12,178 nt of DNA, taken from positions 1 through 12,178 of the IMG/VR virus record IMGVR_UViG_2563366883_000010. One strand, 5' to 3'. A model generated the notes under the pieces. That model did not search any database. It was given only the letters and a program-made list of their open reading frames with translations, and was not told where the DNA came from. This document shows, piece by piece, positions 8,261 to 9,713 of this stretch. The position numbers and the translations under genes are program-made. Origin of the DNA: a virus (lineage: Duplodnaviria; Heunggongvirae; Uroviricota; Caudoviricetes). Each line of letters opens with the position of its first letter. Position 1 is the first letter of the stretch.

Positions 8261-8581
8261 TTATCCCCGATTTGAATCAGTATTCGCTTTCTTTATGGCA
8301 TTTAATGCATCTGTGGCATTTTCAATGGTGCACCGTAACGAAATATTAAACTGTCCAAGCATTGCCAGTAACAAACCGATATTACCCATATCAATGCGCA
8401 TGGCCTTTTCGTCATATTCCTTATTTTCTGACGCATACCACATCAGGCTACCAATTGACGAAACAGCCATTGATATATTGTCAGTAGCCCCATCCGCAGC
8501 GGAATAAACCTTTTTAGCAATATCATGCTCACAGTTAAAATGCGGATTAATCAGGTACTGGTAATTGGTCATGTCAGGCAT
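8261..8581 (-). CDS. Hypothetical protein (106 aa), low-GC cargo gene
   Basis: ATG at 8581 (MPDMTNYQ...) preceded by CAGGGGGTG SD; this start is embedded in the 3' end of the upstream repeat-family ORF. No family recognised. Confidence 0.6.
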   Translation of the reverse strand: MPDMTNYQYLINPHFNCEHDIAKKVYSAADGATDNISMAVSSIGSLMWYASENKEYDEKAMRIDMGNIGLLLAMLGQFNISLRCTIENATDALNAIKKANTDSNRG

Positions 8582-9038
8582 GGCACACCCCCTGACGAAT
8601 ACGGGCGACAAAAATAAGATGTGCGTGCGGCAGCTGTGCGCGTGCTTCGCGCTCAGTGGCAGCGGTAACGGTGAATATTGCAATGCTGTCTGTCAGGCAC
8701 TGCATAAAGCGCCAGACAAAGTAAGGGCGTGCGGATACAGCCATGTGAAAGGCTCCCAGATGAATTTTAAGGAGTCTCGCTACTACGCTGTCAAACATGG
8801 TGGCGAGACGTAACAGGGTTGACAGACTGGTCATCTGGAAACCAGCGAGCACAAAGGCTCCCCCGTTACGCCCCGCCATAATGCGGGTATGGGTAGGTTT
8901 ACGGACACAAAAAAACCGCTTATCGGATGTGGGCGGCTGTCCGCCAGATGTATTCAGGCTGTCAAACCCGGTCGCCATGTGGGCGACGGGGGAAGCATAC
9001 AGCCCCGTGATAATTTTTTGCAAGCGGTTTTTACGCAT
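8574..9038 (-). CDS. Hypothetical repeat-family protein B (154 aa); C-terminal 56 aa form repeat copy R3 (internal ATG 8744)
   Basis: ATG 9038 with AGGGG SD; an internal ATG at 8744 has GGAG 8 nt upstream. The C-terminus (YFVWRF...TEREAR...ARIRQGVCHA) is paralogous to the C-terminus of protein A. Nucleotide differences in the TEREAR block are all third-position synonymous. Confidence 0.4.
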   Translation of the reverse strand: MRKNRLQKIITGLYASPVAHMATGFDSLNTSGGQPPTSDKRFFCVRKPTHTRIMAGRNGGAFVLAGFQMTSLSTLLRLATMFDSVVARLLKIHLGAFHMAVSARPYFVWRFMQCLTDSIAIFTVTAATEREARAQLPHAHLIFVARIRQGVCHA

Positions 9039-9588
9039 GATGTGACCCCTGACGAATACGGGCGGCGAATACAGCAACACAACCGGACGGGCAACGGCTA
9101 CGCGCTTCGCGTTCCGTCCAGGCGGTTACGAGGATGATTTGATGTTCTGACGCGCCAAAGATGATAAAGCGCCAGATAAAGGCGGTTTGAGAATGTACGA
9201 GGGTAGGGGTAGTAGCCATGTTGGCAGCCTCCTCAGTGTGGTTAAGATAACCGCCACGCAAAAGGCTAATTTCGCTGGTGGCGGACTGTACAGGGTTAGC
9301 CTTACCGGACACTGAAGAAACCGGCGCGGATTGCTCCGCCCCCGTACAGCCCACCATTGATAAGGTGTGACTATGCGGCACAAAAAAACACGCGGGGCGC
9401 GTGCTGTGCGCTTCAGTTGTTTTCAGGAGGCTAATCCCGACACCCGTTTTATGAGGTGCGTGGGAATCATAGCCATTTTTGCTGGTGGCGATCAAGCGGT
9501 TTTTTTCTCCGATATTCAGTGCCAGAAAACGCCACACAAAGGCCGTTTGTGTGTGTACAAGGTGTGGTATATGATTTACGGCAACCAT
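9031..9588 (-). CDS. Hypothetical repeat-family protein A (185 aa); has a degenerate N-terminal copy R1 and a C-terminal copy R2 (internal ATG 9219, 62 aa)
   Basis: ATG 9588 with AGGAG 5 nt upstream; internal ATG 9219 with GAGGAG upstream. F-x-W-R-F occurs twice; the C-terminus (TEREAR...ARIRQGSHHA) is shared with protein B. An intrinsic terminator lies inside this ORF, so the true products may be shorter. Confidence 0.4.
   Translation of the reverse strand: MVAVNHIPHLVHTQTAFVWRFLALNIGEKNRLIATSKNGYDSHAPHKTGVGISLLKTTEAHSTRPACFFVPHSHTLSMVGCTGAEQSAPVSSVSGKANPVQSATSEISLLRGGYLNHTEEAANMATTPTLVHSQTAFIWRFIIFGASEHQIILVTAWTEREARSRCPSGCVAVFAARIRQGSHHA
9382..9403 (-). terminator. Intrinsic terminator inside the leader of the leftward operon (attenuator candidate)
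   Basis: Palindrome CACGCG-GGG-CGCGTG (9389-9403) with A7 at 9382-9388 on the plus strand, i.e. hairpin followed by U7 on the minus strand. About 200 nt downstream of the first ATG of the operon. Confidence 0.5.
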
Positions 9589-9668
9589 AACGGCTCCTAG
9601 TTTACGTTGTTGGTTAGAAGCCCCGTTACTGCTCCTACAGTGCGGGGCTTTGCTTTTTGTGTTGATTG

Positions 9669-9713
9669 TGTGTAATGTGTCATTACACATAAATACATTA
9701 CATGAGGTGTAAT
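9669..9713. promoter_or_regulatory. Operator-like palindromes (four TGTAAT half-sites) between the RHH gene and the leftward operon
   Basis: TGTGTAATG-tgt-CATTACACA (9669-9689, 9-bp arms) and ATTACA-tgagg-TGTAAT (9697-9713), 5-50 bp upstream of the RHH start. Confidence 0.5.

Follow-up and report, generated by a model that had tools for sequence, protein, structure and literature searches.

We analyzed a stretch of DNA of 12,178 nucleotides (nt) from a tailed virus of the Caudoviricetes (IMG/VR record IMGVR_UViG_2563366883_000010, positions 1 to 12,178); this whole stretch is called the window below. The part under study is the leader of the replication operon of a small integrative element, and its coordinates are given on the whole stretch, minus strand. 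An earlier note on this DNA had identified the region as a regulatory leader of the replication operon, which our results support, and had described it as an array of related small open reading frames (ORFs). We found that two complete P4-type immunity cassettes occupy positions 9505 to 8574 on the minus strand. Each cassette has six parts: a sigma-70-like promoter, a b1/a1 pair of the seqA/isrK type, a U-tract, a C4/CI RNA, a b2/a2 pair, and an Icd/Kil-like ORF. The RNA parts lie in the stretches between the ORFs, which the earlier note had overlooked; two C4 genes are located there (9361-9274 and 8883-8796), together with one isrK element (9459-9383) and one of the c4-a1b1 type (9000-8951). 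All four matches came from an Rfam scan at gathering thresholds (45 bits for RF01695; clan CL00128), and all four are on the minus strand. The proteins encoded by the short ORFs matched NCBIfam NF033153 ("host cell division inhibitor Icd-like protein"), for which the curated cutoff is 25 bits; the family includes P1 Icd and P4 Kil, and its members are expected to block division of the host or kill it when overproduced. The features of the leader are as follows; a' and b' are the single-stranded recognition elements of the C4 RNAs (seqB in P4).

9505-9588, minus strand: unit 1, the 5'-terminal 28 codons of an icd gene, preceded by its own Shine-Dalgarno sequence (AGGAG) and joined to cassette 1 in frame at GGAGAA/AAAAACCGCTTG
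9466-9495, minus strand: predicted internal promoter of cassette 1, analogue of P4 PLE (TTGATC, 18 nt, TATGAT; 9/12 in the promoter scan)
9383-9459, minus strand: isrK/seqA-type element of cassette 1 (Rfam RF01394, 61.8 bits; gathering score, 50)
9434-9427, minus strand: b1 of cassette 1, TTAGCCTC, 7/8 paired with b' of C4-1
9419-9408, minus strand: a1 of cassette 1, CAACTGAAGCGC, ~8/12 paired with a' of C4-1
9405-9383 (stem, 9405-9387), minus strand: intrinsic terminator of cassette 1, analogue of P4 t1, with an 8-bp GC stem and a U-run
9274-9361, minus strand: C4-1 antisense RNA, homologue of P4 CI (Rfam RF01695, 75.4 bits, E 1.2e-13, full length; minimum free energy [MFE], -47.1 kcal/mol)
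9269-9262, minus strand: b2 of cassette 1 (seqC type), TTAGCCTT, 8/8 paired with b' of C4-1
9239-9228, minus strand: a2 of cassette 1, ACACTGAGGAGG, 12/12 paired with a' of C4-1; covers the icd1 Shine-Dalgarno sequence (GAGGAGG)
9031-9219, minus strand: icd1, Icd/Kil-like ORF of 62 amino acids (aa) (NF033153, E 3.6e-15, 55.7 bits)
9031-9588, minus strand: long ORF 1, 185 aa, Eta-like; starts in the icd 5' fragment, spans promoter 1, isrK, the terminator, C4-1, and b2/a2, and reads in frame into icd1
8994-9023, minus strand: predicted internal promoter of cassette 2 (TTGCAA, 18 nt, TATGCT), homologous to promoter 1 and 29 nt before b1, compared with the typical 32 nt
8909-9000, minus strand: a1b1/seqA-type element of cassette 2 (Rfam RF03163, c4-a1b1, match at 9000-8951, 46.8 bits against a gathering score of 46.7)
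8965-8959, minus strand: b1 of cassette 2, TTGACAG, 7/7 paired with b' of C4-2
8951-8941, minus strand: a1 of cassette 2, ACATCTGGCGG, 9/11 paired with a' of C4-2
8796-8883, minus strand: C4-2 antisense RNA (Rfam RF01695, 72.6 bits, E 6.1e-13, full length; fold, -47.0 kcal/mol)
8794-8788, minus strand: b2 of cassette 2, TTGACAG, 7/7 paired with b' of C4-2
8763-8753, minus strand: a2 of cassette 2, TCATCTGGGAG, 11/11 paired with a' of C4-2; covers the icd2 Shine-Dalgarno sequence (GGGAG)
8574-8744, minus strand: icd2, Icd/Kil-like ORF of 56 aa (NF033153, E 1.6e-14, 53.7 bits)
8574-9038, minus strand: long ORF 2, 154 aa, Eta-like; spans promoter 2, the a1b1 targets, U7, C4-2, and b2/a2 and reads in frame into icd2

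Both C4 RNAs have the fold of the family, a long closing stem around two hairpins, which is reproduced by the MFE folds of the two window copies. A covariance model was built on C4 copies that a degenerate core pattern had picked out of viral contigs, and this custom model gave 55 copies in the loci collected at that stage. Among 40 distinct sequences, 98% of the cells in the family structure were paired, 18 of the 27 base pairs had changed on both sides, and none of 500 shuffles reached as high a value. The C4 RNAs also have a conserved 3' end of the GCCACCA type. The sequence CGCCACCAGC, which is identical to C4 3' ends, is found at 9480-9489 in the promoter of cassette 1, and it recurs in or just upstream of cassette promoters in other elements (L120, L096, L098, and L082). 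These copies may have been left by recombination at C4 3' ends as cassettes were shuffled.

The two RNAs differ in their recognition elements, which are a' UUUCUUCAGUGU and b' AAGGCUAA in C4-1 and a' UUUCCAGAUGA and b' CUGUCAA in C4-2. The duplex of the cassette 1 a2 site has an energy of -15.0 kcal/mol with its cognate C4-1 a' versus -4.9 kcal/mol with the noncognate C4-2 a'; the corresponding values for the cassette 2 a2 site are -14.5 kcal/mol with C4-2 a' versus -4.3 kcal/mol with C4-1 a'. The start codons of icd1 (ATG 9219) and icd2 (ATG 8744) each lie 8 nt after their own a2 site. Two further candidate targets were considered. The C4-2 a' element can pair at 10 of 11 positions, 6 of them Watson-Crick, with the Shine-Dalgarno sequence of the 106-aa ORF that follows icd2 (8598-8588; -8.2 kcal/mol), which we take to be probably a chance match. 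The loop of a hairpin in the 5' untranslated region (UTR) of unit 1 (9643-9632) can pair at 11 of 12 positions with C4-1 a'. This candidate was rejected because a' was altered in the related island L001 without a matching change in the loop, and because the duplex is weak (just -4.5 kcal/mol with the unit 1 5' UTR).

The cassettes differ in how their early transcripts might end. In cassette 1 the predicted transcript start (~9459) is the first base of the isrK match, and the GC hairpin plus U-run at 9405-9383, which the earlier note had correctly recognized as a terminator within the first unit, is the isrK/t1 terminator. Cassette 2 has a small 5-bp hairpin (8945-8932) 16 nt before a U7 tract (8915-8909). 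It also has an 11-bp long-range stem, AAAAACCGCUU/AAGCGGUUUUU (9021-9032 with 8910-8921), that encloses the b1/a1 hairpins and ends in U7. Because its 5' arm is upstream of the cassette 2 promoter, this stem could be formed only by transcripts reading through from cassette 1. It has one mismatch in L001, and no covariation was seen.

Comparison with L001 gave the clearest evidence that the pairing matters. The scaffold of the leader is 97 to 100% identical between the window and L001, but b1, a1, a', b', b2, and a2 have been replaced together in both cassettes. In cassette 1 of L001 the terminator stem and C4 hairpin 1 have also been replaced, with compensatory changes in the stems. Such a coordinated swap requires selection on the RNA-RNA interaction, and it indicates that both cassettes have been maintained.

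The same arrangement was found in 49 distinct modules from other elements, which have 23 a' types and 15 b' types and in which loops and targets covary. The target positions are regular: b2 is at +0 to +4 after the C4 3' end (+7 in two modules), a2 is at +27 to +38 over the Shine-Dalgarno sequence, b1 is mostly at -70 to -115, and a1 is mostly at -52 to -100. The cognate a2 site is fully paired in 31 of the 49 modules and is uniquely the best match among all a' types in 30. The segment searched upstream of b1 contains a promoter-like site (TTGnnn, 17 to 18 nt, TAnnnT) in 41 of the 46 modules taken from other elements; in most of these 41 the -10 hexamer ends 32 nt before b1, and in the rest the distance is 29 to 33 nt. 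Arrays of up to three C4 modules occur with a spacing of ~656 nt, each module having a different specificity (e.g., L120, 9709-11108, and L096, 4675-5421). Such multimodule arrays are present in unrelated elements: L120 (three modules), L096, L098, L080, L189, and L181. The first genes after the C4 modules vary. In the sample from L074 to L193 they encode Icd/Kil-like proteins of 56 to 81 aa, proteins of 120 to 187 aa starting MATVPTSPYLKIEVVNGKAV, 77-aa ORFs, and others; we judged the proteins starting MATVPTSPYLKIEVVNGKAV to be Rha/Bro-like by eye.

The short ORFs are also real components of the leader. Their starts at 9588, 9219, and 8744 on the minus strand are as given in the earlier note, but the three related units proposed there are two full units and a 5' fragment. 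Units 2 and 3 (icd1 and icd2) do share the motifs F-(I/V)-W-R-F, TEREAR, and ARIRQG-x-(H/C)-HA, whereas unit 1 is Icd-like only over its first ~28 residues (to FVWRFLAL) and has neither TEREAR nor ARIRQG. In L001 the equivalent of unit 1 is annotated by the Prokaryotic Genome Annotation Pipeline (PGAP) as an Icd-like pseudogene without a C terminus. Unit 1 can be recognized as the 5' part of an icd gene because another locus, L209, has an identical leader followed by a full-length Icd without cassette 1. The junction sequence AAAAACCGCTTG recurs directly after the icd1 stop codon. The TEREAR blocks of units 2 and 3 differ at only four third-codon positions (ACG/ACT, GAA/GAG, GCG/GCA, and CGT/CGC), and CAGGGG-7nt-ATG is found at the 3' end of both units, where it starts the next ORF (ATG 9038 and ATG 8581), again as the note had stated.

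By the Nei-Gojobori method, icd2 of the window and L001 differ by 7 synonymous and 2 nonsynonymous changes, giving a ratio of nonsynonymous to synonymous rates (dN/dS) of 0.08. This value bears out the claim that the short ORFs are genuine coding paralogues. For icd1, 3 synonymous and 4 nonsynonymous differences were too few to be informative. The comparison of icd1 with icd2 gave a dN/dS of 0.49, which is of limited value because dS was ~1.1, near saturation. Selection at the protein level on the short ORFs is thus supported by the codon comparisons. The note had concluded from such differences that the repeats are protein rather than RNA, which was a false choice because every repeat combines an Icd/Kil-type ORF with a C4/CI RNA gene and the targets of that RNA. 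The statement that the units belong to no known family also falls, given the matches to NF033153, RF01695, RF01394, RF03163, and Pfam PF10554. For reference, the ORF after CI in P4 scores 76.1 bits and a P1-like Icd scores 52.3 bits with NF033153.

The long frames through the RNA genes are open in both cassettes. The frame of long ORF 1 has no stops, versus 9 and 1 in the other two frames, and that of long ORF 2 has none, versus 6 and 4. Both start codons are upstream of the predicted internal promoters (ATG 9588, promoter at 9495-9466; ATG 9038, promoter at 9023-8994). The icd1 stop codon overlaps ATG 9038-9036 of long ORF 2 (ATGCGTAA) and the icd2 stop codon overlaps ATG 8581 of the 106-aa ORF (ATGCCTGA), so that the sequence contains an unbroken chain of overlapping ORFs from ATG 9588 into the replication genes. 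PF10554 (Phage_ASH) matches long ORF 1 at aa 40 to 133 (E 7e-11), exactly across isrK and C4, and phrog_29966 matches it over its full length (E 2e-113). Long ORF 2 had no Pfam match; its equivalent in L001 is annotated as a coding sequence by PGAP.

We examined the frames in other modules over a span that began 100 nt before C4 and ran through C4 and the spacer to the start codon. A stop-free frame continuous with the downstream ORF was present in 36 of 40 distinct P4-like modules, versus 2 and 7 of 40 for the other two frames, and it held whatever the downstream protein was (Icd/Kil-like, Rha/Bro-like, or other). Only 1 of 8 P1-like phage modules had a stop-free frame through C4. In Gifsy-1 the ORF over the C4-like RNA is translated and coupled but its amino acid sequence is not conserved, which is why we read the long forms as frames probably kept open for ribosome transit and not as proteins with a conserved function. 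The labels "Ash protein family" (Pfam PF10554), "ash family protein" (PGAP), and "transcriptional repressor" (PHROG; phrog_1743, 6196, and 6928) rest on translation across seqA/CI (isrK/C4). Since the repressor is an RNA, such protein names mislead (window, 9031-9588; P4 [L194], 8168-8584; both minus strand).

Natural variants of the leader were found by searching viral contigs for the island's own target pairs. Matches with a 42-nt span were homologous satellites. With a 48-nt span, the C4-1 target pattern TTAGCCT...CACTGAGGAGG also appeared in ~25 large contigs of 46 to 91 kb, most of them from metagenome 3300045988 (L213, L217, L223, L227, L237, L242, and similar loci). In six inspected contigs the pattern is inside a conserved protein-coding gene, and no C4 was found in any of them; we regard the 48-nt matches as chance multiplied by relatedness. 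Among the homologous satellites, L209 shares an identical upstream promoter, hairpin, and unit 1 start with the window, and its full-length Icd (65 aa) is followed directly by cassette 2. L233 and L231 have only unit 1 and cassette 1; in L233, icd1 has an icd2-type C terminus and runs straight into the 106-aa ORF. L232 has a single C4 of the C4-1 type. Four loci (L205, L220, L222, and L226) have two cassettes in which the window-type C4-1 is paired with four different second specificities. Cassettes appear to be gained, lost, and respecified by recombination between the icd repeats and between cassette boundaries (AAAAACCGCTTG), with the long frame always kept open.

Parts of the leader region also occur in Escherichia coli. 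Matching DNA was present in 1,443 of 5,426 complete genomes, with cassette 1-like DNA in 826 and cassette 2-like DNA in 774, and there were up to 6 matching places per genome. At least 80% of the 1.6-kb query was covered in one place in only one of the 5,426 genomes; several others cover the whole leader through icd2.

The closest known system is the leader of satellite phage P4 (NC_001609), a resemblance to which the earlier note had already pointed. P4 has isrK at 8692-8615 and C4 at 8507-8420, followed by a 65-aa Icd-like ORF (MATTLTPSHPEFVFVF..., E 1.6e-21) whose stop codon overlaps the epsilon start; icd1 is the positional homologue of this ORF. In both cases the leader precedes the primase gene in an int/alpA satellite, and the old "cI gene product, 137 aa" ORF of P4, which spans the RNA gene, matches Phage_ASH as does long ORF 1. 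The differences are that P4 has one cassette and the window has two in series with different a'/b' specificities; that the Shine-Dalgarno sequence and ATG of long ORF 1 derive from icd whereas P4 Eta is coupled to alpA; that in the window an operator-like region and a divergent Arc-like gene separate alpA from the leader; and that downstream the window lacks epsilon and has a 610-aa D5-type primase. As summarized in PMC10111431 after Forti et al. (1999), the constitutive promoter, seqA, and CI of P4 all lie within the long ORF eta, of which Kil is a truncated form; translation of Eta is possible only from an upstream late promoter, and it prevents termination. PMC10111431 (NAR Genom Bioinform 2023) also reports that relatives of CI and seqA are detected by the Rfam C4 and isrK profiles, which match several Gram-negative phage-inducible chromosomal islands (PICIs) between the int/alpA zone and the replication zone. 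The immunity RNAs of this "Bro zone," described there for Gram-negative and helper-embedded PICIs, occupy exactly the position of the window leader.

The Gifsy-1 prophage of Salmonella has a comparable region, in which an isrK-type leader with a terminator (IsrK small RNA, STnc1160) precedes a C4-like RNA, which undergoes processing and overlaps a translated ORF. In structure IsrK is homologous to P4 seqA, and the processed RNA downstream of it resembles CI (PMC4825925). The translated ORF of isrK-orf45-anrP is coupled to the next gene, and its nucleotide sequence is conserved while its amino acid sequence is variable (PMC4825925). Gifsy-1 differs in that the short IsrK RNA activates translation in trans and in that the output is an antirepressor plus a Q-like antiterminator. 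The immI region of P1/P7 shares with the window the RNA family, the a'/b' logic, and the upstream and downstream target pairs, the latter over the icd ribosome-binding site; in both, the first gene to be translated is icd, and it is coupled to the one that follows. It differs in that the window has no antirepressor downstream and in that P1-like phage modules mostly lack the stop-free frame through C4 (1/8 versus 36/40 in P4-like modules).

In P1 and P4, C4 is processed by RNase P to a stable RNA of ~77 to 80 nt that represses in trans. The Eta/Kil and CI mechanism of P4 is reportedly due to Forti (1999) and Briani (2000), and some of the steps proposed below come from there; the immI (c4-icd-ant) mechanism of P1/P7 is said to be that of Citron and Schuster (1990) and Biere et al. 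(1992). Our reading, to which we assign a probability of roughly 0.78, is that the leader is a doubled P4-type antisense-RNA immunity region that keeps the replication operon shut at rest. By analogy with P4 and P1/P7 (PMC10111431 and PMC4825925), the internal promoters would fire constitutively and the leader transcripts would be processed to stable C4 RNAs of ~80 nt. On the same model, pairing of C4 with b1/a1 would enhance early termination and so autoregulate the level of the RNA. Pairing with b2/a2 would block icd translation, and the untranslated transcript would terminate before the 106-aa ORF, DUF4222, and primase genes. Because the two RNAs differ in a'/b' and pair with their own targets only, a transcript would have to pass two independent locks in series. 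A bypass of the P4 Eta kind may exist: a transcript from the operator-rich promoter upstream would contain both long-ORF starts (ATG 9588 and ATG 9038), and ribosomes could translate through both cassettes and, via the ATGCCTGA overlap, into the downstream genes. Translation through both cassettes would make expression insensitive to the C4 RNAs. The leader is best read as a self-repression (immunity) lock, in place of the derepression or helper-sensing module that the earlier note had suggested. We suspect that any sensing of the helper or of induction is more probably located at the repressor/operator-like promoter region upstream (9654-9734).

Several points weigh against this reading. The cassette 2 promoter matches at 8 of 12 positions, below the threshold of the promoter scan; the c4-a1b1 match is marginal, only 0.1 bit over its threshold; and neither a terminator scan nor folding found a canonical local terminator hairpin in cassette 2. 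The short b' elements discriminate less than the a' elements, C4-1 b' giving -7.7 and -7.9 kcal/mol on cassette 2, and in both cassettes the a1 sites pair less well than the a2 sites. Counts over the 49 modules overstate independence because the sample is phylogenetically related, and common descent of the modules could account for part of the stop-free frame result. Upstream, the -10 hexamer of the candidate promoter is weak, and the promoter scan did not list it. Neither long ORF is coupled to alpA, which is ~800 nt upstream with two opposite-strand genes between: ORF 1 has a Shine-Dalgarno sequence of its own, which implies a bypass wired differently from that of P4, and ORF 2 is coupled instead to icd1. 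Finally, the transcript starts, processing, termination points, and translation of all ORFs are predictions.

The most extensive form of the doubled-lock reading is that both cassettes are functional and orthogonal and form a two-input lock, that the pair of specificities is a combinatorial immunity identity that decides satellite coexistence, and that the cassettes are mobile via the icd repeats while an Eta-type bypass frame is always kept open. We hold this form tentatively and consider its chances to be somewhat below even. It is less probable that the cassettes are mainly weapons or identity tags, their trans-acting C4 RNAs shutting down incoming satellites or phages of the same specificity and two cassettes widening the range of exclusion. 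C4/CI RNAs act in trans by nature, the 23 a' and 15 b' types reassort freely (the window-type C4-1 having four partners), the swaps of specificity in near-identical scaffolds resemble diversifying selection, and a single E. coli genome can have as many as 6 matching places. But this role is compatible with the lock, each RNA has perfect cis targets in its own operon, and the search of viral contigs for both target pairs returned only homologous satellites, the other matches being in an unrelated coding gene. A still less probable alternative is that only one lock works and that the second cassette, or the icd fragment plus cassette 1, is a neutral or decaying by-product of recent recombination, so that the pair would do no more than a single P4-type immunity region. 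Variants with one cassette occur in both kinds and are presumably viable, the near-complete query was found in only one E. coli genome while each cassette alone is in ~15% of genomes, and cassette 2 is the weaker in its promoter and terminator features. Against decay, in both cassettes the C4 fold is intact, b2/a2 pairing is perfect, icd is intact and under purifying selection, and the long frame is open. The coordinated change of specificity in both cassettes relative to L001 would require selection on every element, and two- or three-cassette arrays recur in unrelated elements, not only in the six listed above but also in L205, L220, L222, and L226.

Two readings that assign the leader a different output seem much harder to maintain. 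One makes it a P1/P7 immI-type operon (c4-icd-ant) whose antirepressor would derepress a helper prophage. The RNA family and the icd-first design are the same, cassette 2 is P1-like in its c4-a1b1 match and 7-nt b', and elsewhere C4 modules precede Rha/Bro-type genes; yet no Ant, KilA, Bro, or Rha follows, the next genes being the 106-aa ORF, DUF4222, and primase, and a stop-free long frame, as seen here, characterizes P4-like modules but not those of P1-like phages. We regard this as very improbable. The least credible is the reading as an array of three paralogous small-protein genes, or their 154- and 185-aa forms, of an unknown family that act in derepression or helper sensing and are constrained at the protein level only. 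The low dN/dS of icd2, the TEREAR blocks that differ at synonymous sites only, and the open long frames would fit it. It is largely refuted by the C4, isrK, and a1b1 elements between the ORFs, with their strong scores, covariation, and covarying targets; moreover, the family is known (Icd-like), unit 1 is a 28-codon fragment, and the homologous elements of P4 act as an RNA repressor system (PMC10111431).

The region upstream of the leader contains the following features.

9654-9734, minus strand: candidate upstream promoter, analogue of P4 PLL (TTGACA at 9724-9719, 18 nt, TAATGT at 9701-9696)
9718-9897, plus strand: Arc-like/YlcI-YnfO-like gene, 59 aa, divergent from the leader (profile matches)
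9940-10128, plus strand: phrog_21027 gene, 62 aa (PHROG match)
9618-9650, minus strand: 5'-UTR hairpin (-19.7 kcal/mol, z -4.1), ahead of the unit 1 Shine-Dalgarno sequence

Direct and inverted repeats of the GTGTAAT type are dense in 9654-9734, where they surround the candidate promoter in an operator-like arrangement; among them is a 12-nt inverted repeat (arms at 9666-9677 and 9681-9692). Relatives that share the leader have other repeat sets: GTGATTC in L195, GTGTTCAACAC in L198 and L231, and GGTGGTCACC in L233. From these sequences the divergent region looks like a set of exchangeable repressor/operator pairs. The 5'-UTR hairpin, noticed earlier as a hairpin in the 5' leader, is indeed stable; its stem is kept by compensatory changes in L001, L195, and L198, and its loop is variable. 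Read on the plus strand, 9618-9650 has the form of an intrinsic terminator, a hairpin followed by TTTGCTTTTT.

On the minus strand the order of the element is integrase, AlpA, leader, 106-aa ORF, DUF4222, D5-type primase, SSB and PerC, and capsid genes. The tyrosine integrase gene (12178-10961, minus strand) is the first gene, and the AlpA gene (10586-10398, minus strand) lies between it and the leader. The capsid genes encode an HK97-type capsid protein, a prohead protease, a portal protein, a head-completion protein, and an HNH endonuclease. Judged by this gene content, the element is a capsid-forming PICI/P4-like satellite. The genes that follow the leader are these.

8261-8581, minus strand: 106-aa ORF, the first gene downstream of the locks (phrog_15327, E 9e-71, unknown function; no Pfam match)
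7955-8254, minus strand: DUF4222 (Pfam match)
6141-7973, minus strand: D5-type primase, 610 aa (primase domains)

Domain and PHROG searches of the window proteins found no Ant, KilA, Bro, or Rha domain downstream of the leader. The 106-aa ORF occupies the position that epsilon, the helper-derepression protein, has in P4, and from its position it could be a functional analogue. A search of genome contigs with the 62-aa Icd alignment gave 45 pattern matches, none of which was confirmed, the query being too short for tblastn. A locus search based on the primase gave 72 loci across many genera. The 13 closest relatives (L002 to L014; hosts Raoultella, Kluyvera, Pluralibacter, Klebsiella, Enterobacter, and Serratia) have primases 72 to 82% identical to that of the window, and an Rfam scan found no C4, isrK, or a1b1 upstream of them. 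Thus, the leader and the replication module are combined independently. These loci show the leader to be mosaic but otherwise told us little about it. With the custom model, C4 was found at a few more distant primase loci (L015, L038, L040, and L050). The int-alpA RNA (RF02996) was present in two of the L002 to L014 loci and was below threshold in the window.

The P4/P1-type parts and their logic are already known, and homologues of CI and seqA have been published in Gram-negative PICIs, so the principle is not new. The part of PMC10111431 that we consulted does not describe tandem cassettes of different specificities, in-frame chaining of long ORFs, or coordinated swaps of specificity, and we did not find an in-series pair of cassettes with two specificities described in the literature. 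What goes beyond the published descriptions that we found is the pair of different specificities in series, the coordinated respecification of both cassettes between near-identical islands, and the in-frame chaining of the long ORFs through cassette gain and loss. The results also correct the annotation: the repressor is an RNA, and "ash family protein" and "transcriptional repressor" label a frame across an RNA gene. Capsid-forming PICI-like islands of E. coli can carry self-immunity of the P4 kind, in doubled form. The comparative data point to rapid, coordinated respecification of five or six short elements per cassette together with free reassortment, which makes these leaders a compact natural example of orthogonal RNA-RNA regulators. 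Should both locks prove functional, they would provide a testable model for how such satellites avoid leaky replication and tell self from related competitors.

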